A stretch of DNA of 20,004 bases from a virus. Taxonomy: Duplodnaviria > Heunggongvirae > Uroviricota > Caudoviricetes. How positions within the stretch are numbered: the stretch's first letter is position 1; each line of letters opens with the position of its first letter. The notes beneath the pieces are model-generated. The model ran no database searches. It saw nothing but the letters and a program-made list of their open reading frames with translations, and was not told where the DNA came from. Below are positions 1-12,332 of the stretch, one piece after another. A program made the position numbers and the translations under genes. The stretch is from the IMG/VR virus record IMGVR_UViG_2698536418_000005. One strand, 5' to 3'.

Positions 1-1342
1 CGGTATCGGTAGCGACGTTGCTCGGCATGTTCTCAAGCTGCGACGCACCTGTAATTTGCTGAATAGCCGTTCCGGTGTACTGCAATAGCCCAGCAAGAGC
101 AGGAGGCATTTGTGTCGGAGGTGTCCAGCCAGCAACCTGAGCCTCTGAAATGACCGTTCCGTTTTTGTCCTTCTTGCTGGTCATGGGAAGAACTGCAGGT
201 CTTTTCTTATTCCTCTCTGCCCAGTGATTCATTAATGGACCGGGAATGAAATCAACATCCACGATAGGAATGCCATCGCCGCCAGCCTGAGTAGCGTTAT
301 CTGCAATCATGGAAACCATCAGGTTCTCAAGACGCTGTGCATCCATCGCTTTTGCTGCGTGGCCTTCGATTCGCTCCTGATTATCAACAAATGAACGACG
401 CCCATATACCGGGATGAGAGGAATATGTTCGCCCGGAATACGTTTCGGTTCTTCCAGCCATTCAGCGCCAGACAGAAGACCGCAATAAACTCGGCGTTTC
501 TTCACCGTTCGCTCGCCAATCAGTTCGAATGCACCATCGGTCAGCTCGTCGACAATATCTTTGATTTGCTCTTCATCATAAATTGCCGTTTCTCCGCTAA
601 CAGGGTTGCGCCACGCCGTGAGCTTCACCTTCTCTATGCGAACTTCGTAGTAGCGTCCAACATAGATGGCATCGGGCGTTGACCAGTCATACTGAGTACC
701 AGTGTCATCACGAGAAAGGCTTGCTGCGATGGAATCAGGGTATTCAGCCTCGAACGCTTTGGGCGTCATGGAGAACATTTCCATAGCCCACATGGCATCA
801 GAGCGGTCATATTGCTTGCTGTCCTGATCGAAGAAGACGCATGTCGCCGGGTCGTAAACAGGAAGAAGGCTGATGCGTCGCTGCTCGTTACTCGGATCCA
901 TTTCATCTTCGTAATCGGCACACATGCGGAAACAACCGAATCCGCCCGTTACGGCATCATCAAATGCGTTATCACACGCTTCGCCACCGGATGTTTCCTG
1001 ATAGTCAGCGCGGAATTTGCCGTTCATCTTTTCGGCTAACGCTTCCGATGCCTTATCGTCCTTAGGCCTGAATTTAACGCTGATGCGATTCTGTCGATAC
1101 TCGCCAATGATGCGATCACATTCACGGGCAATCTTATTCAGTTCAAAGCGCGGGTAATGCTCAAACCTGCCTTCATCAAATGAGTAACCAGCGTTTGTGC
1201 TGCCTTCCCACTGTGCGCCGGACACCCGGACGAAACGTTGAGCCTCAATAATCTGCTCACGCATATCCTTCGTTGCTGACCAGGCATTATCAAAGTTGCA
1301 CAGCACCTTGCGATGCCAGTCAGTCATCTTTTTTTCTGCCAT
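1..1342 (-). CDS. Probable portal protein, partial (C-terminus lies beyond the window edge)
   Basis: Open frame on minus strand starting ATG at 1342 (MAEKKMTDWHRKVL...) one nt after the terminase large subunit stop, running without a stop to position 1. Not in ORF track because it has no stop in the window. Portal call rests on position downstream of TerS-TerL; no motif recognised. Confidence 0.5.
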   Translation of the reverse strand, partial: MAEKKMTDWHRKVLCNFDNAWSATKDMREQIIEAQRFVRVSGAQWEGSTNAGYSFDEGRFEHYPRFELNKIARECDRIIGEYRQNRISVKFRPKDDKASEALAEKMNGKFRADYQETSGGEACDNAFDDAVTGGFGCFRMCADYEDEMDPSNEQRRISLLPVYDPATCVFFDQDSKQYDRSDAMWAMEMFSMTPKAFEAEYPDSIAASLSRDDTGTQYDWSTPDAIYVGRYYEVRIEKVKLTAWRNPVSGETAIYDEEQIKDIVDELTDGAFELIGERTVKKRRVYCGLLSGAEWLEEPKRIPGEHIPLIPVYGRRSFVDNQERIEGHAAKAMDAQRLENLMVSMIADNATQAGGDGIPIVDVDFIPGPLMNHWAERNKKRPAVLPMTSKKDKNGTVISEAQVAGWTPPTQMPPALAGLLQYTGTAIQQITGASQLENMPSNVATDT

Positions 1343-1343
1343 A

Positions 1344-2759
1344 TCAACCTACACCACAAGGAATTGAGTAACTGGAATAGTCGGGTTGCGAAGCCGACTC
1401 CGGGCAATGCATACACATCATCAGCGCATCAGCCAGGTTAGGAGATGGAATACCGAGCTTCTGCTTCATTTCGACCTTAGTCATAAGCTCCAGCTTCCCG
1501 TTATTATTGAATTTGCGCTGAATCTGCGTCAGTTCTGCAAACAGCTTCTCCAGCATCTTCTCGCCTATCACTTCTTTGTCGAAACTCAGCATGTCGTCGG
1601 GGTCTGCATACTCACCGTGGACAACCGCCCGATATGTCAGATACAGCCTGTCAGCCAGCGCGTAATAGAATTGCGCTCGCTTATTGCGGAATACATCGCC
1701 AATAGTACGAACGTTGTCGCCCTGTACGACTTCATCGGCCCATGCTCCGGCCTGATATGGTGCATCTTCATCGAATGGCGATTCGCTGCCCTTGAACATC
1801 GTGGCGGTGATTTTCTTGCCGGAGAACGCTTCCGTTGTCTGTCTGCGTAGCCCCGCACCAACACCATCACCATCCCACAGGTAATGGTCAGCGCCGTCTT
1901 CAATCGCCAGCGAAGTAGCCCAGTCAGCACCATCGTTGATGTCCATCAGCAGACCTTCGGCAATGCGCTTAACCACCGAACCGTGACGCGATGCGTAACC
2001 TTTAGCATCCGGCCCTGTATCTGACGGGTCATGTGCAGAAACAACCGCGCCTTTCGCTTTCCATCCGAGTTTCTTGTGCGCATCGGTTGCGGCTTCAAGC
2101 CATTCACGTTTGATGATTGCCATATCACTTGCGCTTACTGGCTCACCAAGCCAGATGTGACGATACAGTGTCGGATTTCTGCGTTTGCACTCTTCCATCT
2201 CCAGACGGAGAACTTCAGGAAAGTGCGGGTTGTCGGTGTAGTTCACCGTCAGCAGACAAATATCATCAGGAGGGTTTACGACGAATCGCTGATAGGTATC
2301 GTCGAGGATGTTTTTCGGGTTGAAGCTCACCCATATTTCAGAGAACGGCTTACGGATGGTTGGTATCAGGATATCCCACGATTCCTTTGTTACCGCTTCC
2401 GCTTCTTCCACCCAGCAGATATCAATACCTTCTAGCGATTTAATCTTCGTCGGGTTGTTTTTGATGCCGTAGAACATGAATTCAGCATTCGTTCCGAGAT
2501 GACGAATCATTGAACGCTGAATTTCAAACTCAGCCGAATACCCTTCACGCTCGATGGTATCTTCAAGCAACCGGATTACCGAATCGCTGATACTGTTTTG
2601 CAGTTCACGAGCGCAGAGAATACGCACTGGCTGCCGACGCACCGCTTCAACAAGCAGTCTCGCGATTGCCCATGACTTACCGCTACCTCGACCGCCTTTG
2701 GCGACTTTGTAGCGATGCGCCTCAATGAACGGTTCAAAGATAGGATTAATCGAGGTCAT
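1344..2759 (-). CDS. Terminase large subunit (PBSX/Terminase_3-like)
   Basis: 471 aa ORF; Walker A-like KGGRGSGKS near N-terminus, acidic nuclease-type C-terminal half; start overlaps upstream small-subunit stop (ATGA). Confidence 0.9.
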   Translation of the reverse strand: MTSINPIFEPFIEAHRYKVAKGGRGSGKSWAIARLLVEAVRRQPVRILCARELQNSISDSVIRLLEDTIEREGYSAEFEIQRSMIRHLGTNAEFMFYGIKNNPTKIKSLEGIDICWVEEAEAVTKESWDILIPTIRKPFSEIWVSFNPKNILDDTYQRFVVNPPDDICLLTVNYTDNPHFPEVLRLEMEECKRRNPTLYRHIWLGEPVSASDMAIIKREWLEAATDAHKKLGWKAKGAVVSAHDPSDTGPDAKGYASRHGSVVKRIAEGLLMDINDGADWATSLAIEDGADHYLWDGDGVGAGLRRQTTEAFSGKKITATMFKGSESPFDEDAPYQAGAWADEVVQGDNVRTIGDVFRNKRAQFYYALADRLYLTYRAVVHGEYADPDDMLSFDKEVIGEKMLEKLFAELTQIQRKFNNNGKLELMTKVEMKQKLGIPSPNLADALMMCMHCPESASQPDYSSYSIPCGVG

Positions 2760-3196
2760 TTTCCGAATAGAGTGCTCATCGGTGATGTTTCAATCTGAAT
2801 TGCGCCGCCGTCTTTGCCTGTTAGCTCGTGATCAACCTTGTCGCGCCATTTATCCTTCTGTCGGTTCTTAAGCCAGAAAATGGCAGCGGTTGTATCAGGC
2901 GGGTAATACTTCTCAAGCGGAGTTTCGACAATTCTGTTTTCAATAACACGAATATCGATATCTGGAGCCACGAAGCCCATAGCGCGTTGATAAAGACGAT
3001 CACTAACTTCTGCATCAGCGACGGCCTTACCCTTTTTTATGGACTCCGAAAACTTAGGATAATCAAGCTTCCACTTGTTAATAGTTGACTCACTGACTTC
3101 GAAGAAATCAGCAAGCTCTGCATCGGTGTAGCCCAGCAAGCACAGTTTGCGTGCCTGTTCGGCGTACGCCTCTTGATACTTTGTTGGGCGCGCCAT
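2756..3196 (-). CDS. Terminase small subunit (HTH-containing)
   Basis: 146 aa ORF immediately upstream of and overlapping TerL; N-terminal HTH-like segment (PTKYQEAYAEQARKLCLLGYTDAELADFFEVSESTINKW). Confidence 0.75.
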   Translation of the reverse strand: MARPTKYQEAYAEQARKLCLLGYTDAELADFFEVSESTINKWKLDYPKFSESIKKGKAVADAEVSDRLYQRAMGFVAPDIDIRVIENRIVETPLEKYYPPDTTAAIFWLKNRQKDKWRDKVDHELTGKDGGAIQIETSPMSTLFGK

Positions 3197-3198
3197 GT

Positions 3199-3441
3199 TT
3201 ATGCTCCGGTAGTGAACAGGTCTAACGCTTCCTTCGATTTACGCACCGCTTCGATTGTGCGGGTCGTGATATCTGAATTAGCGCCGCCTGACTGGAAGTG
3301 AATTTTGAATAGCTCAAGCTTCAACTCGTCAGTGCCGATGAATTGAAATGCTTCTTCTGCGGCTGCGTTCTGGTTCATGACCAGTTTGTAAATCTCTAAC
3401 TGGAATTTCTGTTCTTCAGTCATGGGAATAATCTCTGCCAT
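3199..3441 (-). CDS. Hypothetical protein (80 aa) upstream of terminase genes
   Basis: ORF with GGAG RBS about 8 nt upstream of ATG, tightly packed 2 nt before TerS; no recognisable motif. Confidence 0.5.
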   Translation of the reverse strand: MAEIIPMTEEQKFQLEIYKLVMNQNAAAEEAFQFIGTDELKLELFKIHFQSGGANSDITTRTIEAVRKSKEALDLFTTGA

Positions 3442-3798
3442 TATTGGCTCCGTTTATCCGTTAAAAGGGATATCAGTTAAGTTATCCCGTGTAGGGTATA
3501 AGCCATTGTCGAGACCACTCATTGAATGGTCTCTGCAATAACCGATGTCTTTCCATCAGTCCGCCACCACAAAGAATCTTTTTTGCCATAAGGCTGGAGG
3601 TTCATCTTTCAGTGGCTGCCAGTGTTATTTCCCCACTTACTGGCTTGGGTTGTTTCGCTGTACTGCCGTAACTGGTTACCCAGAATAAATTCCGGTTTCA
3701 TTATCAAGCCCACCCGTAGATGGGCTTTGTAATGGATAGCCGTTGCTCAGTTCTCGTAATGCTTTGATTTTTCCGATAACGCAGTTTTGCGTTTGCCA

Positions 3799-4320
3799 TC
3801 AGCACGCGATATCGAGAGTCAACTGCAGTTGCTCGCGCCAGTACTCAACATTTGCTTCAATAACCGGCTTATCCCATCGCCAGCGAGCCATCTCTCTTGC
3901 CCCATTGCTGGCTTTTGATTTCCGGTCATCGCGAATGCGACATGCTTGCTCATATTTCTGCTGCTCAGTCAGTTCACCGCGAAGCAGACTATCAATGTGC
4001 AGGTCGCACCATACGGAGAATTTCGGATCGCACCATCTTGCAAAGGCAACTGATAACTTTGGATGCAGCCATGTTCCGCCGCCCCTGTCCTTTCGTGCCT
4101 TGCTTGTTTTTACATACCCGGAATCACGGGTATGTAGAATTTTCGATGGTTCACCTGAATAAACCTCATCCAGAGCTCTAACGTATTCGAGAGTTTCAGC
4201 ATTGGACAACCAGTGATCCAGACGCTTCCCGAAACGTTTTGCAATATCAGTGGCATTAATCCAGCCATCAGTATTGAAGCGGATAGGTTCGCCTTTGTAA
4301 TTTAGTGGAACGATATTCAT
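3799..4320 (-). CDS. KilA-N domain protein
   Basis: 173 aa ORF; N-terminal region has the KilA-N/APSES-like pattern (INATDIAKRFGKRLDHWL ... GTWLHPKLSVAFARWCDPKFSVW). Confidence 0.7.
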   Translation of the reverse strand: MNIVPLNYKGEPIRFNTDGWINATDIAKRFGKRLDHWLSNAETLEYVRALDEVYSGEPSKILHTRDSGYVKTSKARKDRGGGTWLHPKLSVAFARWCDPKFSVWCDLHIDSLLRGELTEQQKYEQACRIRDDRKSKASNGAREMARWRWDKPVIEANVEYWREQLQLTLDIAC

Positions 4321-4664
4321 AGCGTCTTACCTTTTAGAAAGATGAGCCTGTTCGCACAGAAAAGCCGCCCCGAGATGGTCGCCACCATATACGGCAGTTC
4401 TCAGGCTCAGCTTTCTGAAAGACTCGGGATTGTTACGCGCTGCGATGCGCGGTTTACTGCAGATGTAAAAAAGCCCCGCTAATGCGAGGCTAAATCCTGG
4501 TATTTGTAATGACTGGCTCTTATCTCAACGCAGCCCCTTACCGCGCGCCAGATGCTCAATATCAAGCATCAGCAATGAGATGTTTAATCTGGATTCACTC
4601 CAGAAGTGATCACCACCCTGTCTACAGAGCCAGATGTGAAGGATGATGAGTAAAATTATCGCTA

Positions 4665-5102
4665 TCATCGAAGGCATTGCGTCCTGATGTATTCCTGCAA
4701 GTAGTTAACCTGCGCGGTTATCTTGTCGATTCCACTTCGGAGACGGTAATAATTGAGTTCAGCATCTGCTGTAAGTCTTGGGCTTTCTCCATCGCCCATG
4801 CCGCTGGCTCCGGTCGTTGACTTTGCACAGGTGGCGGCGACTTGCAGGCGCTTACGCCCAGCAGAAACATCAGCACGGAGACTTTCGATAGTCGCGTTAG
4901 CATCAGCAAGCTCCTTTGTGTATCTGGCGTCAAGTTCTGCTACATCACGTTGACGCTTCTGCATATCAGCGATGATGGACGTGGCTTTATCGCGCTGCTC
5001 TTTGTAGGCGATGGCGTTATCACGGTAGTGATTAACAGCCCATGACAGGCAAACGATGATGCAGATAACCAGAGCGGAGATAATCGCGGTTACTCTGCTC
5101 AT
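4665..5102 (-). CDS. Rz: Rz-like i-spanin (lambda-like N-terminus, divergent C-terminus)
   Basis: 145 aa ORF; start overlaps R stop (ATGA); N-terminal TM segment [31 protein letters not shown] matches lambda Rz as recalled, remainder diverges. Confidence 0.8.
4718..4903 (-). CDS. Rz1: Rz1-like o-spanin lipoprotein embedded in Rz (+1 frame)
   Basis: 61 aa ORF from internal Met of track ORF 4718..4933; signal-like segment with lipobox-like VSAC followed by Pro-rich stretch; fully nested inside Rz as in lambda. Confidence 0.65.
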
Positions 5103-5575
5103 ACCTCAATCTCTCTGACCGTTCCGCCCGCTTCTTTGAATTTTGCAATCAGGCTGTCAGCCTTATGCTCGAACTGACCATAACCAGCGCCCGGAAGTGA
5201 AGCCCAGATATTGCTGCAACGGTCGATAGCCTGACGAATATCACCGCGATCAATCATCGGTAAAGCGCCACGCTCTTTAATCTGTTGCAGTGCCACAGCG
5301 TCCTGGCTTTTCGGAGAGAAGTCTTTCAGGCCAAGCTGCTTACGATAGGCATCCCACCAACGGGAAAGAAGCTGGTAACGTCCGGCTGCTGTTGATTTGA
5401 GTTTGGGGTTTAGCGTGACAAGTTTGCGAGGGTGATCGGAGTAATCAGTGAATAGCTCTCCGCCAACAATGACGTCATAACCATGATTTCTGGTTTTCTG
5501 TCGTCCGTTATCTGTTCCCTCTGACCACGCCAGCATATCGAGGAACGCCTTACGTTGATTATTGATTTCCACCAT
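5099..5575 (-). CDS. R: Endolysin R (lytic transglycosylase), lambda R-like
   Basis: 158 aa; sequence [39 protein letters not shown]... matches lambda R from memory; overlaps S by 17 nt as in lambda. Confidence 0.95.
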
Positions 5576-5882
5576 CTTCTACTCCGGCTTTTTTAGCAGC
5601 GAAGCGTTTGATAAGCGAACCAATCGAGTCAGTGCCGATGTAGCCGATGAACACGCTCGTTATATAAGCGAGATTGCTACTTAGTCCGGCGAAGTCGAGA
5701 AGGTCACGAATGAACCAGGCGATAATGGCGCACATCGTTGCGTCGATTACTGTTTTTGTAAACGCACCGCCATTATATCTGCCGCGAAGGTACGCCATTG
5801 CAAACGCAAGGATTGCCCCGATGCCTTGTTCCTTTGCCGCGAGAATGGCGGCTAACAGGTCATGTTTTTCTGGCATCTTCAT
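5559..5882 (-). CDS. S: Holin/antiholin S (dual-start S107/S105), lambda S-like
   Basis: 107 aa; Met1-Lys2-Met3 dual-start motif ([10 protein letters not shown]...), three hydrophobic segments; matches lambda S from memory. Confidence 0.95.
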
Positions 5883-6298
5883 GTCTTACCCCCAATAAGG
5901 GGATTTGCTCTATTTAATTAGGAATAAGGTCGATTACTGATAGAACAAATCCAGGCTACTGTGTTTAGTAATCAGATTTGTTCGTGACCGATATGCACGG
6001 GCAAAACGGCAGGAGGTTGTTAGCGCAGCCTCATGCCACCCGCTTTCACGAAGGTCATGCGTAGAAGGCCGCAGCATAACTATCACTGATGAGTTCAGGA
6101 TAGCCAGTGGCTACGGCTCAGTTTGGGTTGTGCTGTTGCTGGGCGGCGATGACGCCTGTACGCATTTGGTGATCCGGTTCTGCTTCCGGTATTCGCTTAA
6201 TTCAGCACAACGGAAAGAGCATTTATGGCTCGCATCGCGGGAAAAAGCCCACGGTAGAGAGTCGAACTCTACAAATGATCTTACCTGTTGCACAGACA

Positions 6299-6360
6299 TA
6301 AAAAATCCCGAAACCGTTATGCAGGCTCTAACTATTACCTGCGAACTGTTTCGGGATTGC
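6299..6360 (-). terminator. tR'-like rho-independent terminator
   Basis: On minus strand: TCCCGAAAC...GTTTCGGGA stem followed by TTTTTTAT; matches lambda tR' as recalled. Confidence 0.75.
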
Positions 6361-6491
6361 ATTTTGCAGACCTCTCAGCCTGCGATGGTTGGAGTTCCAG
6401 ACGATACGTCGAAGTGACCAACTAGGCGGAATCGGGAGTAAGAGCCGCCTCTTTTCATCTCACTACCACAACGAGCGAATTAACCCATCGT
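6299..6491 (-). ncRNA. 6S-like PR' leader transcript (qut-dependent late leader RNA)
   Basis: About 193 nt from predicted PR' start (ACGATGGG...) to tR'; sequence closely resembles the lambda 6S RNA region as recalled. Confidence 0.65.
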
Positions 6492-6498
6492 TGAGTCA

Positions 6499-6527
6499 AA
6501 TTTACCCAACTTTATTCAAAAAGTCAA
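6499..6527 (-). promoter_or_regulatory. Late promoter PR' with qut site
   Basis: Minus-strand TTGACT -35, 17-nt spacer, TAAATT -10, immediately downstream of Q; lambda PR' arrangement. Confidence 0.7.
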
Positions 6528-6569
6528 TATTATGCCGTTAATATGTTGCCATCCGTGGCAATCATGCTG

Positions 6570-7193
6570 CTAACGTGTGACCGCATTCAAAATATTGTCT
6601 GCGATTGACTCTTCCTTGTGGCATTGCACCGCCAGAGCGTCATACAGCGGCTTAACAGTGCGTGACCAGGTGGGTTGAGTAAGGTTTGGGATTAGCATCG
6701 TTACAGCGCGATATGCGGCGCTTGCTGGCATCCTTGAATAGCCGACGCCTTTGCATCTTCCGCACTCTTTCTCAACAACTCTCCCCCACTGCTCCGTTTT
6801 GGCTATATCAACCGCACGGCCTGTACCGTGACAATCTCTGCATCTTGCTCCCGGCGTCGCAGCACTACGGCAATAATCCGCATAAGCGAATGTTGCGAGC
6901 ACTTGCAGTACCTTTGCCTTAGTATTTCCTTCGAGCTTTGCCACACCACGGTATTTCCCCGATACCTTGTGTGCAAATTGCATCAGATAGTTGATAGCCT
7001 TTTGTTTGTCGTTCTGGCTGAGTTCATGCTTACCGCAGAATGCAGCCATTCCGAATCCGGCTTGTGATTGCGCCATCCCCATAGCAGCCATCACATCAGT
7101 ACCGGAAAGAGAGTCAGAAGCCGTAGCCCGTGGTGAGTCGCTCATCATCGGGCTTTTTGGCGAATGAAATTTAGCTACGCTTTCGAGTCTCAT
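6570..7193 (-). CDS. Q: Late antiterminator Q, lambda Q-like
   Basis: 207 aa; MRLESVAKFHSPKSPMMSDSPRATASD... with Cys-rich Zn-binding segment (CRDCHGTGR...CGRCKG); matches lambda Q from memory. Confidence 0.9.
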   Translation of the reverse strand: MRLESVAKFHSPKSPMMSDSPRATASDSLSGTDVMAAMGMAQSQAGFGMAAFCGKHELSQNDKQKAINYLMQFAHKVSGKYRGVAKLEGNTKAKVLQVLATFAYADYCRSAATPGARCRDCHGTGRAVDIAKTEQWGRVVEKECGRCKGVGYSRMPASAAYRAVTMLIPNLTQPTWSRTVKPLYDALAVQCHKEESIADNILNAVTR

Positions 7194-7306
7194 GGCCTTC
7201 CCCTTTTGCCCTGTTTGACCATCAGGACGCCGTTAACTATTACGTGACGCTCGCCTTTGCTGTCTCGGTTGTACTTGAGCACTGTTCCTCTTGCGCAGGA
7301 AAGCAT
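7190..7306 (-). CDS. Possible small ORF (38 aa) between rusA and Q
   Basis: ATG..TGA frame whose stop overlaps the Q start (ATGA); poor SD spacing; below ORF-track size cutoff. Weak. Confidence 0.25.
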   Translation of the reverse strand: MLSCARGTVLKYNRDSKGERHVIVNGVLMVKQGKRGRP

Positions 7307-7374
7307 CCTTGCCACTTCGGTCTGATTGCCTCGTGTCTAGATAAGAAGCTCTGGTATCGTTTGAATTGTGGCGT

Positions 7375-7737
7375 TCATACGTTCTCCAGTTCGGTGATTT
7401 TTATTCCAAGCCTTCCGCCTGGTACTTTCACGCCACGAATTACGCGAATGTCATCGAATTGCTCGTCGTCTTCCGCAAATCCGGCGTGGATAAGGGAGTC
7501 GAGTAAACCTTTCAGGATGTTATCGAGGTCGCGGCGGCGGGAGTCTGGAACGTCTGCGATGACTTTGATACGGAGTCGTGATTTGGTGAAAATGTCTAAC
7601 TTGAGTTGGCGGATGATTTGCTGAACGTCTTTTCGGTATTTCTGGCCTTTATCGCTGATGTAGTATTGGCTTCCCCGTCTTCGCCAGTAGGTGTTCACCG
7701 ACGGCGGGTAAGGAAGCACAAACTGATATTCTTTCAT
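7375..7737 (-). CDS. rusA: Holliday junction resolvase RusA
   Basis: 120 aa; RusA-type sequence with RRRDLDN motif (MKEYQFVLPYPPSVNTYWRRRG...DSRRRDLDNILK). Confidence 0.9.
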   Translation of the reverse strand: MKEYQFVLPYPPSVNTYWRRRGSQYYISDKGQKYRKDVQQIIRQLKLDIFTKSRLRIKVIADVPDSRRRDLDNILKGLLDSLIHAGFAEDDEQFDDIRVIRGVKVPGGRLGIKITELENV

Positions 7738-8024
7738 GGCTTAATCTTCCCCTCCTTCAGCAGGATCGCCTGCGTCCTGATCACGCCTTCGAGGTGATAA
7801 AGTCTGGCGTCTTTGTTGTCGAGATTATGGGTGCGTCGGTCGATTTCATCGTGACACGCGCTACAAGCCCATGCGCCGATCAGGTCGTCAGGCTTCATTC
7901 CAGTTCCGCAAATTCCAGCCATCCGGTAATGTGCCAGAACTGTAGTTTCAGGATTGCCATTGCATACGCCGTAAATACGTACCTGGCATTCTCTGCCGCG
8001 CGCTTCTTTGCGTAGGTTAGCCAT
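7734..8024 (-). CDS. YbcO/DUF1364-like Cys-rich protein (putative nuclease)
   Basis: 96 aa; Cys/His-rich (CQVRIYGVCNG...CSACHDEID); resembles DLP12 ybcO-type proteins that sit next to rusA; overlaps rusA start (ATGA). Confidence 0.6.
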   Translation of the reverse strand: MANLRKEARGRECQVRIYGVCNGNPETTVLAHYRMAGICGTGMKPDDLIGAWACSACHDEIDRRTHNLDNKDARLYHLEGVIRTQAILLKEGKIKP

Positions 8025-8746
8025 TAAGCAGCCTCCCCTGTTACTTTCAGCATTCTGTTATCGAGCAGCTTTCTGGTCAGCCACTGTTGACCACGCCCGG
8101 TGATTTTTGTGGTGAACGATATCTGTATTCCGTGATTTGTGTTGACCGCTGTTTCTTTCACTGTGAAATAGCCGCGCTCCATATATTCCTGCATTGGCAC
8201 ATTGCGCCGGGAACCTGAAGCAATAAGGATTTTGTGATCGCGCATCCACGCAAACAGTTTGTTTGGACCAATTCCAACAACCTTTGCAAAGTTTCCAATC
8301 AAAATTCCGCTGGCCTCGCCAACGCGATCGGCAAACTCAACTTTAGGTGCGACAATTGCGAGCTGGTTTTCCAGTTGCATTTTCTGCTCAGCAAGATCGG
8401 CAGCAAGGCGCAACGCTTCCGGTAGCGTTTTGGGGATATTAACCGCAGCTTCTTCAAGATCTCGCCAGCGGTCAACAAGGCGAGCGGTGAACTCTGGCGA
8501 CAACTGGGCAACAACGACAATACTGTCTCGCTTACCTTGTTCGCCCTCGAAGACGTAATGCTCGTACTGAACATTGAACCCTAAGTTATTGATTCTTTCG
8601 GAAACCTCAATTTGAGGAAGCCGGATAACACCATTTTTAGCCAGCGTTTCTATGGTACGTTTCACATTGTCATGGCGCTTACCCACCAACTCAGCGATTT
8701 CAATGCTTGTCATTTTGATGGCATTGCCATTTATTAACTCATTCAT
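8024..8746 (-). CDS. Rha-family regulator / antirepressor (Rha N-domain + KilAC-like C-domain)
   Basis: 240 aa; N-terminal Rha-like segment (TSIEIAELVGKRHDNVKRTIETL), C-terminal antirepressor-like region; GAGGAAG RBS. Confidence 0.7.
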   Translation of the reverse strand: MNELINGNAIKMTSIEIAELVGKRHDNVKRTIETLAKNGVIRLPQIEVSERINNLGFNVQYEHYVFEGEQGKRDSIVVVAQLSPEFTARLVDRWRDLEEAAVNIPKTLPEALRLAADLAEQKMQLENQLAIVAPKVEFADRVGEASGILIGNFAKVVGIGPNKLFAWMRDHKILIASGSRRNVPMQEYMERGYFTVKETAVNTNHGIQISFTTKITGRGQQWLTRKLLDNRMLKVTGEAA

Positions 8747-8909
8747 CGTCTTCTTCCTCGTACATTGAGCTATTCGGATCGCTCATCAGTTCTGCGCAGC
8801 AATCGGAGCACACGTGAACTTCCAGCACATGCAGCTTCTGACCGCAGTTAGCGCACGTTAAAGCTCGCTCGACACTTCCTTGTTCGTAACTTCGATTTTG
8901 GTCAATCAC
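8739..8909 (-). CDS. Possible small Zn-ribbon protein (56 aa, GTG start), NinD-position
   Basis: Frame [41 protein letters not shown]...EEEDDE; start overlaps NinE stop, stop overlaps next gene start; below track cutoff. Confidence 0.35.
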
Positions 8910-9088
8910 CTTGTTTTCCTCGCACGTTCTCTAAGCCACCGGATATCCCACAGGTGAGCCGTGTAGTTGAAGGTTTTTACGTCAGATTCTTTTGGGATTG
9001 GCTTGCGTTTATTTCTGGAGCGTTTCGTTGGAAGGTATTTGCAGTTTTCGCAGATTATGTCGGTGATACTTCGTTGCTGTCGCCTCAT
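8906..9088 (-). CDS. ninE: NinE
   Basis: 60 aa from internal Met of track ORF 8906..9178 ([32 protein letters not shown]...), matching lambda NinE as recalled; ATGA overlap with upstream methyltransferase. Confidence 0.8.
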
Positions 9089-9612
9089 TCCGCCCTCCTG
9101 ACGCCCTGCCCGATCGCCATCAATGCCGCTTTGGATACGGTAGTAAACATCCGTCGAGGACTGATGAACGGTCGCCAAATCAGCAGCATGGAGCCTTTGC
9201 TGTTTCCCTTCTTCTCCAGCCCTGTCGATGGTTCGATAAAATTAATCCGTCCATCAGTGATAATGCGAACTTCGTCGACACTCTCCAGAGCCTTGCTGAA
9301 CCATCCGACTGACATATCCTCTGGCACAAGCATCACTACCGTCTGTCGCTGTCGTATGCACTGCTCAGCGGCTTTTTCCACCCACGGCCTGATATTGCTG
9401 TACGGTGGGTTATTCCAGATTGCACCGTGGCTTACCCACTCAGAATTGAGCGCGTCGTCGGCCTCAGTTAGCCAGTGAGCACACAGAGCATTTTTGTCGC
9501 TCGCTGCCGAATCCAGCCAGAATCCAAACTCAATATCCAGTGCATCAAAAAGCCAAAGCGGCGTTTGCCAGCAGTCCTTGTCGTGTGATGGCGTATTTGA
9601 TTTGATAGTCAT
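9085..9612 (-). CDS. Phage orphan DNA N6-adenine methyltransferase (Dam-type)
   Basis: 175 aa from internal Met ([18 protein letters not shown]...); NPPY catalytic motif ([10 protein letters not shown]); no adjacent restriction enzyme; ATGA-coupled to ninB. Confidence 0.8.
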
Positions 9613-10055
9613 GCAGCTCTCCCTTTTCGTTGTGACCATTCATACTCTCGCCAGGAGTCATCACTCCACCGCACGTTGCGCTCTGAGCCGAACCAGAACA
9701 TGATTTCGATAAGCTCAGTCATGCTGGCCTTCCGCATTTTGCTGGTACGCACGCCAAGCATGACAACGCCACCGTCGATACCAGGCACACTTCGTTGCTC
9801 CAGTTTTTTGGTCTTAAGCCACAGGGCAGTGAACAGGTCTTTCCAGTCTTCCGGCGCCAGCCGTTGACCATGCCATAGCACCTGACGCGAAACATCGTTC
9901 AGCATCGGCCACATACGGTCATTCTGCGCTTTGCTGCGCTTGGGTTCTTTAACGTGGACTTCGTGGGGTGACTTGTCGTCGATGGGTAGTGAGAGAATGG
10001 CGTCTATGGCGTTATTTCTGATTGCTTCGTTGCGAAGCAGAAAGGTTTGCTTCAT
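9609..10055 (-). CDS. ninB: NinB (Orf recombination mediator family)
   Basis: 148 aa from internal Met MKQTFLLRNEAIRNNAIDAILSLP...; resembles lambda NinB (…VSRQV.WHG…WKDLFTA…) as recalled. Confidence 0.8.
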   Translation of the reverse strand: MKQTFLLRNEAIRNNAIDAILSLPIDDKSPHEVHVKEPKRSKAQNDRMWPMLNDVSRQVLWHGQRLAPEDWKDLFTALWLKTKKLEQRSVPGIDGGVVMLGVRTSKMRKASMTELIEIMFWFGSERNVRWSDDSWREYEWSQRKGRAA

Positions 10056-10248
10056 CTCCTGCTCTCCGGTTCCATTTTTCAGCCGCCGCAGCAACTGATG
10101 GTGCCCATGCCCCCCTGGCTTCACAGAGGTCACATTCTGCATAGCCCCACACATCAATATTTATTCCGGCCTCAACCCACAGACGAGCATTACCGCCGCA
10201 AAACGGACATTCTTTTAGCTTTGGCTGGGTTAATGATAGGTCGCTCAT
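10012..10248 (-). CDS. Lar-family restriction alleviation protein (zinc ribbon)
   Basis: 78 aa from internal Met of track ORF 10012..10455 (MSDLSLTQPKLKECPFCGGNARLW...ECDLCEARG...AAAEKWNRRA); CPFCGG and C-terminal WNRRA are Lar-family hallmarks; AAGGAG RBS 5 nt upstream. Overlaps ninB start by 44 nt. Confidence 0.55.
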   Translation of the reverse strand: MSDLSLTQPKLKECPFCGGNARLWVEAGINIDVWGYAECDLCEARGAWAPSVAAAAEKWNRRAGDEANLSASQRSNQK

Positions 10249-10258
10249 GCTCACTCCT

Positions 10259-10474
10259 TCACTTAAAATCCAGACTCCGGATAATTCTGTTGCGCTGAAA
10301 CTCATTGTTGAGTTTGAACAACCGTCGAAGAACACGGTCACGCGGATAGCGTCGTGCGGCAGGTGAATGCTCATACAACTCATCAAGCGGCAAACTGGAC
10401 GATGAACGATACCGATACCAACGCACCAACTCTTCACGAAAATTAGCCCTGACAAGCTCAGCTATCGTACTCAT
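10259..10474 (-). CDS. Hypothetical Arg-rich small protein (71 aa)
   Basis: ATG with GAGGAGG RBS about 9 nt upstream; occupies the ren-like slot between helicase and ninB; no recognised motif. Confidence 0.45.
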   Translation of the reverse strand: MSTIAELVRANFREELVRWYRYRSSSSLPLDELYEHSPAARRYPRDRVLRRLFKLNNEFQRNRIIRSLDFK

Positions 10475-10606
10475 TTCTTAAAACCTCCTCAAACGCATTC
10501 TGACGCATTTTTCATTCTCGCTGCTTATCGGCATGCCTTGCACGTGCTTACCTCACCACAGAGCGATTGTGATGCCTTAAAAGCGATTTATTGAAGTGAT
10601 ATTTGC

Positions 10607-10885
10607 TTAATCGAAATTCTTTTCTTTGATTCCTGCGGCCCTGATGGCTTTCATTACTGCAATTACCGTTTTGTCACGCCCATCCTCATAACCCATCGCA
10701 TAAGCACCTTCTTCACCATCTTTCCAAAGGTCGTCATTCGATTCGGGCCAGTCGATATCCAGTTCAATAGCAGAGCGCGATGCCTGCCATATCACCCAGG
10801 CAAACTCTTTTAATTCATCGTCTCCCGTGAACTGGCTTTTGTCTTTTGACCACCAGTTTTCAAACTGTCGGTAGCTATCGTTCAC
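10607..10885 (-). CDS. Hypothetical acidic Trp-rich protein (about 92 aa, GTG start)
   Basis: Track ORF 10607..10900 begins at a TTG inside the terminator T-tract; in-frame GTG at 10885 with GGGAGAGGG RBS is the more plausible start. Confidence 0.45.
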   Translation of the reverse strand: MNDSYRQFENWWSKDKSQFTGDDELKEFAWVIWQASRSAIELDIDWPESNDDLWKDGEEGAYAMGYEDGRDKTVIAVMKAIRAAGIKEKNFD

Positions 10886-10898
10886 TTCCCTCTCCCCC

Positions 10899-10929
10899 AA
10901 ATAAAAAGGCCTGCGATTACCAGCAGGCC
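10899..10929 (-). terminator. tR2-like rho-independent terminator after helicase gene
   Basis: Minus strand: GGCCTGC-TGGTAATC-GCAGGCC stem-loop followed by TTTTTATTT, about 25 nt after helicase stop. Confidence 0.6.
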
Positions 10930-10955
10930 TGTTATTAGATCAGTGATGTAGATGG

Positions 10956-12332
10956 TCATACGTCAGCCCCTTGTGCATATCGTCTGCCACGCGAAGCAGG
11001 TGCATTTGATGCTGTGCAAATCTGTCTGGCTTCATCCTGGTCACATGCAACAAAGTGTCCGTTGCAGAACCGCTGGTAAACCGTACCAAGCGAGCCAAAA
11101 CGGTTTTTCGTCACAATGATTTCAGCAAATGGCGCGGCGCTACTGTTCTCGTCATATACCGCCTCCCGATAGAGCATGATGATTGAGTCTGCGTCCTGCT
11201 CAATGCTTCCTGAATCACGCAAATCTGCGTTTGTCGGGCGTTTGTTTGGTCGCTTCTCAACATCGCGCGAAAGCTGACTCAGGGAGATAACAGGCGTTTT
11301 CAGGTCTTTCGCCATCGCCTTCAGGCTTCCGGAGATGTGAGCAATTGCGAGGTCGTTGCGATCTGCTTTCGGCTTCTCAATCAGGCCAAGATAATCCGCC
11401 ATGATGAGTGACAGGTTTGGATTTTCCTGTTTGTGCCGTTCTGCGATTGAGCGAATTTCTTCGACCGATAACCGCGAGGCATCGACTACCCATACATCCA
11501 AATCTGCAAGCTGACTCATGCCGTTAGCAACACGCGCCCAGCCTTCGTCATCCATCGATGCAGGATTTCGCAGTACGCTAACCGACATCCTCCCGGCGTT
11601 GGCAATGCTTCGCTCTGCAATCTGCAATGCGCTCATTTCCATTGAGAAAATCAATACTCCGCGCCGAACGTCAGAACCAGGAATAACGCGGCTTGCAACG
11701 CCTTCGGCAATATTCAGAGCCAGTTCGGTTTTCCCCATACCAGGACGAGCAGCGATTATCACCAGGTCTTCCGCGTTCATCCCTCCGGTGATGGCATCAA
11801 GTTCTTCGATTCCGGTCTTCAGGGTATCTGACTCTTCTCCGTTCCTCAGACGCCTGTCAAGCGTGTCAGTGTAGTCAGTAATGATTTCCCCTAACCGTAC
11901 AGGTTTTACTTCGTCACGGGGCTTTCTGATGGCTGAAAGACGCTTTACAAGCTCATCCATCGCCTGACTCGATGCGTCGATGGTCCCGCCCTGAATTGGT
12001 TCACGCATTTCATCCATGATTTCCAGCACCAGACGGCGGTGATAGTTATCCGCGACCATTCCGGCATATCCTTTCAGGTTTGCGGCACTCGGGCAGTTTT
12101 TGCTGGTCATCAGGATTGACGTGAAATGCTCCTCTCCGCACGCCTCGGCAACCATCAGCGCGTCGATTAGGTTTCTGTTTCGCGCCTGCTTGCGGATAAC
12201 CTCGAAGGCTTTCCGGTAGAGCGGAATTGAAAACGCTTCCGGCTCCAGCGTTGCAAGAACGTCACTGGCGGTTGGAGTTAATCCACCAATCAGCAGGCCA
12301 CCGATAACGCTCGCTTCGATATCCTGTCTCAT
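10956..12332 (-). CDS. Replicative DNA helicase (DnaB family)
   Basis: 458 aa; Walker A ARPGMGKT, DnaB-like N-terminal domain and RecA-like C-terminal core; start overlaps O-like gene stop. Confidence 0.9.

Follow-up and report, generated by a model that had tools for sequence, protein, structure and literature searches.

The interval between rusA and Q in the window (by which we mean the whole 20,004-nt stretch of viral DNA that was analyzed) is very probably the known gene ninH, cut by a recent CAG-to-TAG nonsense mutation, with NinH lost and Q kept. The gene itself is already known, and its nonsense allele is nearly private to one lineage. The first-pass annotation had placed a possible tiny open reading frame (ORF) of 38 codons in what it took for an intergenic region. 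Positions 7190 to 7374 are not intergenic; they lie in ninH, a frame of 62 codons belonging to Pfam family PF06322, and the short frame is no novelty either, since it corresponds to residues 25 to 62 of this known gene.

The rusA-Q interval holds an interrupted ninH

The 38-codon frame runs on the minus strand from ATG 7306-7304 to TGA 7192-7190 and has the product MLSCARGTVLKYNRDSKGERHVIVNGVLMVKQGKRGRP; in the ORF list, the same frame extended to GTG 7315 gives 41 amino acids. Upstream of it, 24 further codons are open, bar one TAG, back to ATG 7378. Translation of positions 7190 to 7378 in this one frame of the minus strand yields MNATIQTIPELLI, a stop, TRGNQTEVARMLSCARGTVLKYNRDSKGERHVIVNGVLMVKQGKRGRP, and a second stop. 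The features of the region are the following.

7375-7737, minus strand: rusA, Holliday-junction resolvase gene, intact, directly upstream of ninH (Pfam PF05866, E = 1.1e-16; annotation of relatives)
7375-7378, minus strand: ATGA overlap of rusA and ninH, with ninH ATG 7378-7376 over rusA TGA 7377-7375 (sequence and related loci)
7190-7378, minus strand: ninH, complete frame of 62 codons plus stop, 189 nt, with a single in-frame TAG (translation, Pfam, annotation of relatives, alignments)
7337-7339, minus strand: amber codon TAG at ninH codon 14, CAG (Gln) in relatives (DNA alignment, allele counts)
7190-7306, minus strand: 38-codon frame, the C-terminal remnant of ninH, residues 25 to 62 (translation; Pfam profile positions 26 to 60 only)
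7196-7207, minus strand: purine-rich Shine-Dalgarno (SD) tract of Q, AAAAGGGGAAGG, inside the last ninH codons (anti-SD energy)
7190-7193, minus strand: ATGA overlap of ninH and Q, with Q ATG 7193-7191 over ninH TGA 7192-7190 (sequence and related loci)
6570-7193, minus strand: Q antiterminator gene, intact, 207 codons (Pfam PF03589, Antiterm, E = 2.6e-57)

With the internal stop read as Gln, the conceptual product matches PF06322 (Phage_NinH) over its full length (profile positions 1 to 60 of 60, E = 2e-24), scoring 85.7 bits against a cutoff of 29.8, and it also matches PHROG 268 (E = 3.6e-26). The C-terminal remnant alone reaches 43.6 bits over profile positions 26 to 60. The location is likewise that of ninH, in the ninR region with a resolvase gene (rap/ninG or rusA) directly upstream and Q downstream, and the gene order ninB-dam-ninE-ninF-roi-ybcO-rusA-ninH (interrupted)-Q-S-R-Rz is alike in relatives. 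Together with the annotated relatives, which are nearly identical, the Pfam match settles the identity of the gene. NinH family members have an uninterrupted ORF of about 60 to 68 codons, which in the window is broken by the TAG at codon 14. Because the relatives are uninterrupted, we file the window's ninH as a nonsense allele or pseudogene and not as a functional member of the family.

Taken as a whole, the window has the mosaic make-up of a P22-like/lambdoid E. coli phage and extends from terminase to the recombination genes, and its coverage by any complete E. coli genome or phage record never exceeds 75%. An antisense ORF at 7244-7624 (plus strand, 126 amino acids, GTG start) was rejected as spurious, being unsupported and lying opposite the conserved ninH and rusA.

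Relatives carry ninH in full length

A megablast search with the region gave matches in 132 phage records and 1,687 E. coli genomes, and the closest of them all annotate RusA, NinH, and Q under the match. Eight relatives were aligned, namely, E. coli 755, phiv205-1, Salmonella phage sp11242, mEp235, HK620, HK97, phiKp_30, and HK022. Six of the eight records annotate ninH as a gene of 189 nt, with 4-nt overlaps onto the stop of rusA at one end and the start of Q at the other; in those of phiKp_30 and HK022, ninH is unannotated and its frame is intact. Save at codon 14, six of the eight encode a protein identical to the window's conceptual NinH. HK97 gp68 and the NinH proteins of HK022 and mEp235 share 61 of 62 residues with it, the difference being Gln14 (CAG) against the window's TAG, and HK620 NinH (62 amino acids) has in addition Arg62 in place of Pro. 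The window's gene shares with those of HK97, HK022, HK620, and mEp235 the position between rusA and Q, the length of 189 nt, and the ATGA overlaps at both ends but, unlike them, is truncated after 13 residues.

For a broader view of conservation, we used 117 IMG/VR loci with the CAG 27-mer and a complete ninH region among the matches listed. In this set, none of the 117 ninH frames contained an internal stop, the ATGA overlap of rusA and ninH was present in all 117, and the ATGA overlap of the ninH end with the downstream gene was present in 115. The same loci, again among the matches listed, held 61 distinct ninH DNA alleles with 29 synonymous and 20 nonsynonymous variant codons, the latter clustering in the C-terminal tail. 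A tblastn search with the 62-amino-acid product retrieved 486 phage records, in 484 of which at least 80% of its length was covered; the matches reach down to about 54% identity and include P22, 9NA, Stx phages, and an Erwinia phage. Met25, the first residue of the 38-codon frame, is replaced by Ile or Val in a number of close relatives and by Arg in lambda; judged from these protein sequences, it is an internal residue and not a conserved initiator.

The first-pass annotation had proposed to follow the short frame through related regions upstream of Q and would have given it up had the frame been disrupted in close relatives with Q intact. What the relatives keep intact is the longer frame, both in the 117 loci among the matches listed and in 484 of the 486 phage records, and the reverse case was found, the frame being disrupted in the window itself beside an intact Q. 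The suspicion that the ATGA overlap at the Q start might be coincidental did not hold up against its presence in 115 of the 117 related loci listed.

Translation signals and the junction with Q

The overlap of the short frame's TGA with the Q ATG is present as the first-pass annotation had described it (ATGA, 7193-7190); that is, the upstream stop overlaps the downstream start by 4 nt. Its remark on poor SD spacing was also borne out when the anti-SD pairing energies of the start codons were ranked against all 1,271 ATG and GTG codons in the window, with the following result.

Q ATG 7193: -7.8 kcal/mol, top 2.6%
ninH ATG 7378: -6.4 kcal/mol, top 5.7%
GTG 7315: -5.9 kcal/mol, top 8.8%, but with the GAGG 13 nt upstream
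ATG 7306: -2.4 kcal/mol, about the median of the window, 44.6% of the background being at least as strong

The amber codon frees a stretch of 143 nt from translation. This stretch is not notably structured (fold z = +1.10; 173 of 200 shuffled sequences gave a fold as good or better), and in the predicted RNA ensemble the Q start is not preferentially paired, its mean unpaired probability being 0.56 against 0.50 overall. No composition resembling a Rho entry (rut) site was found in the 143 nt, where the C/G ratio is 0.75 and G exceeds C in every 78-nt window. The whole stretch of 20,004 nt gave no Rfam match at the gathering threshold, and positions 7190 to 7374 held neither a promoter nor a terminator-like site on the coding strand, with promoter and terminator counts at shuffle level. 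That Q appears to have a good and unsequestered SD of its own argues against its translation depending on ribosomes arriving from upstream.

The proposal that Q translation is tied to the upstream frame thus stands in part. In relatives with an intact ninH, such linkage is plausible, because the ATGA overlap with Q is conserved. In the window, most ribosomes entering ninH would stop at codon 14, 143 nt before Q, and coupling is therefore more likely broken than operating. The overlap is also not peculiar to ninH. In lambda, the Q ATG likewise shares bases with the stop codon of the nin gene before it, whose last codons hold a purine-rich SD; the upstream partner is ninI in lambda and ninH in the window. 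Considering that lambda has the same layout with ninI, the ATGA overlap seems to belong to the boundary of the Q module and not to ninH as such.

Several further observations concern Q and its borders. The window's Q is identical to lambda Q at 205 of 207 residues (BLASTP), the two differences being L135Q and V188A; in a related contig described below, L009, residue 188 is Val as in lambda, and this accounts for one of the four mismatches between that contig and the window (position 6631). Among relatives, the ninH stop overlaps at least two downstream gene starts, ATGAGAC of the lambda-type Q and ATGAGCA of another type (locus L131, 1485-1490), and the lambda record carries a misc_recomb feature exactly at the Q start (43884-43885). 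This boundary, the ATGA at 7190-7193 in the window, may be a junction for module exchange. A consensus scan detected a promoter-like TTGACT-17 nt-TAAATT at 6499-6527 on the minus strand; it follows the Q stop by 43 nt, at the place expected of the late promoter pR'.

Probable loss of NinH with retention of Q

The early-right operon of the window looks otherwise intact, comprising cII, O, a DnaB-type P, ninB, dam, ninE, ninF, roi, ybcO, and rusA; after rusA come Q, S, R, Rz, KilA-N, and terminase. An N gene is present as well (Pfam N36). In lambda, the genes past cro are N antiterminated, and phage from which the entire nin region has been deleted still form plaques unimpaired (bioRxiv 10.1101/2023.05.14.540688).

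In intact relatives, 4-nt ATGA overlaps link rusA, ninH, and Q head to tail within the N-antiterminated pR operon. For the window, we propose that ninH would start by coupling from rusA or at its own weak SD and that ribosomes would release a 13-residue peptide at the TAG. Little or no NinH would be made. Q would still be expressed despite the amber codon in ninH, given its own SD, an untranslated stretch of 143 nt that is neither structured nor C rich, and an N antiterminator encoded by the phage; on these grounds, Q expression is probably little affected. The mutation would be tolerated because lytic growth does not require the nin region. It is presumably recent, since no other difference from the intact alleles has accumulated in the gene.

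The remnant of NinH and possible restart downstream of the amber codon

Lambda NinH is a Fis-like, nucleoid-associated homodimer of 68 amino acids that binds and bends double-stranded DNA, a property demonstrated biochemically for the lambda protein only (PMC7166090). Its helix-turn-helix (HTH) comprises residues 17 to 38, and its helices alphaA to alphaC correspond to alphaB to alphaD of Fis (PMC7166090). Alanine substitution at N18 weakens DNA binding at least 40-fold, R30A lowers it by more than 3 orders of magnitude, and with T32A or K35A binding is not detectable (PMC7166090). The lambda protein and the window's conceptual NinH are 53% identical with one-to-one residue numbering, and N18, R30, T32, K35, and the dimerization residue H45 are common to both. 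They differ at position 34 (Arg in lambda, Leu in the window) and in the C-terminal tail, which in the window is shorter and without H55/R56. The genomic setting differs too: lambda ninH follows rap/ninG and precedes ninI, which in turn overlaps Q, whereas the window's ninH lies between rusA and Q. A profile of the relatives' NinH proteins weakly matches Fis, NinH residues 13 to 35 aligning with Fis 68 to 90 (E = 0.014).

Against this background, termination at the TAG might be followed by low-level reinitiation at GTG 7315 or ATG 7306, giving a truncated NinH. Such a product would keep the recognition helix and the C-terminal beta-strands, and ribosome delivery to the Q start would be partly preserved. 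The in-frame restart codons are close to the TAG (21 nt downstream for GTG 7315, 30 nt for ATG 7306), the remnant retains R30, T32, K35, and H45, and E. coli is known to reinitiate translation after early nonsense codons, as in lacI and T4 rIIB. We nevertheless regard this course of events as unlikely, and its consequence for Q as equally so. Neither restart codon has an SD at a functional distance. A start at residue 22 or 25 falls inside the HTH and leaves the product without alphaA, N18, and most of alphaB (which opens the HTH), N18 being a residue whose replacement by alanine alone has the effect on binding given above. Q, with its own SD, needs no delivery of ribosomes. Because it would start inside the HTH without these elements, a product from residue 22 or 25 is expected to be nonfunctional, and as far as can be predicted from its sequence, the restart product from GTG 7315 or ATG 7306 is unlikely to have a NinH-like fold or to bind DNA.

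The amber allele is nearly private to one lineage

At 7339, a single base change, C to T as read on the coding strand (G to A on the plus strand), creates the amber codon. In the DNA alignment, all eight relatives have CAG at codon 14, and the C-to-T change is the sole difference at that codon. The distribution of both alleles was surveyed by megablast with 41-mers centered on codon 14 and a required exact word of 28 nt; every such word spans the center of the 41-mer, so that only the queried allele can match. The CAG 41-mer was found at 863 places in 800 genomes among 5,426 complete E. coli genomes, in none of which the TAG 41-mer occurred, and the TAG 41-mer was equally absent from 50,697 phage records. 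As an exact 27-mer, the TAG allele had no match in the species-representative genome set or among metagenome contigs. In IMG/VR viral contigs, the TAG 27-mer was present twice, both times from IMG genome 2579778982, and the CAG 27-mer was present in at least 120 contigs. The carriers found are thus the window contig (CYCB01000054.1, assembly GCA_001283405.1, whose gene caller left the rusA-Q gap empty) and one other draft genome only.

The two TAG contigs of IMG genome 2579778982 are related to the window in different ways. One, L009, matches window 849-10938 at all but 4 positions; the other, L010, is common with the window over 6505-10959 and then diverges. Compared with the window, this second assembly has 4 mismatches per 10 kb, and its adjoining replication region and downstream structure are different. 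IMG genome 2579778982 may belong to a near relative of the same strain, and one mutational event may lie behind the TAG allele. As an observation on this genome itself, L009 5657-10090 and L010 1-4434 are identical (100%) over a 4.4-kb segment from Q to ninB that corresponds to window 6505-10938, and at the edges of this segment each contig either ends or diverges. Two related prophages whose shared repeat was collapsed in assembly would give such a picture.

The rarity of the allele, absent as it is from complete genomes, phage records, species representatives, and metagenome contigs, and the draft status of both assemblies that carry it are what would be expected if the TAG were a sequencing or assembly artifact and ninH were really intact with CAG. 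The same TAG is found, however, in the assembly from a second source, which differs at four positions and in the adjoining replication region. Its presence in two nonidentical assemblies makes a lone base-calling error unlikely, as does the identity of the base hit for a substitution error, and we consider an artifact very improbable.

A further possibility is that the amber codon is read through, by a host suppressor of the supE type (tRNA-Gln) or by leaky termination, so that full-length NinH and the coupling of ninH to Q are kept. Insertion of Gln at the TAG would restore the wild-type protein, and the remainder of ninH is without decay, which a recent mutation explains equally well. The tRNA search revealed no tRNA gene on the 20-kb contig, and hence no phage-borne suppressor in the window, and the stop is conserved at none of the 863 E. 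coli places and in no phage record, a pattern unlike that of programmed or suppressor read-through. Amber suppression is not known to be a general trait of natural E. coli isolates. We give read-through very little credence.

A more speculative view is that selection favored the amber allele because it attenuates a toxic prophage gene, and that the allele passed between two coresident prophages in a small E. coli lineage. Reinitiation or partial read-through would then yield truncated or low-level NinH, a product that might escape the reported DNA-binding toxicity of the full-length protein and keep up ribosome traffic to the Q start. We think it highly doubtful that the allele has this origin.

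An exact-protein look-up in a large assembly index returned no record of the 41-amino-acid remnant product and eight matches to the 38-amino-acid one, all of them ordinary ninH genes cut by contig ends. As each of these contigs begins at the Met25 ATG or 1 nt before it, the eight matches are uninformative about the TAG allele. The coincidence of these ends is an observation in its own right: the eight contigs come from independent assemblies (NCBI, ENA, and JGI) and all begin at this point of ninH (about window 7304-7310). This recurrent assembly breakpoint suggests that the 3' half of ninH together with Q forms a repeat or mosaic boundary among coresident prophages.

An independent small gene of 38 to 41 codons, translationally coupled to Q through the ATGA, is extremely improbable: the frame and its overlap exist and a GAGG precedes GTG 7315, but the frame equals residues 22 or 25 to 62 of a 62-residue gene intact in hundreds of relatives, Met25 is not conserved in close relatives or lambda, the SD of ATG 7306 is at background level and the GAGG lies 13 nt from the GTG, and the recorded products are absent (41 residues) or derived from cut ninH genes (38 residues).

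Implications

If, as we conclude, ninH has been cut by a recent nonsense mutation with Q kept, the biological weight of the finding is small: lambdoid phages can do without this known accessory gene, and prophages routinely vary by nonsense alleles confined to a single lineage. Its use lies in annotation, where the interval from rusA to Q should be entered as a ninH pseudogene (Q14amber), neither empty nor the seat of a new small ORF. More generally, a short ORF with a neat ATGA junction beside a regulator can be the remnant of a larger gene, and the revealing check for such remnants is to follow the reading frame upstream through the first stop codon.
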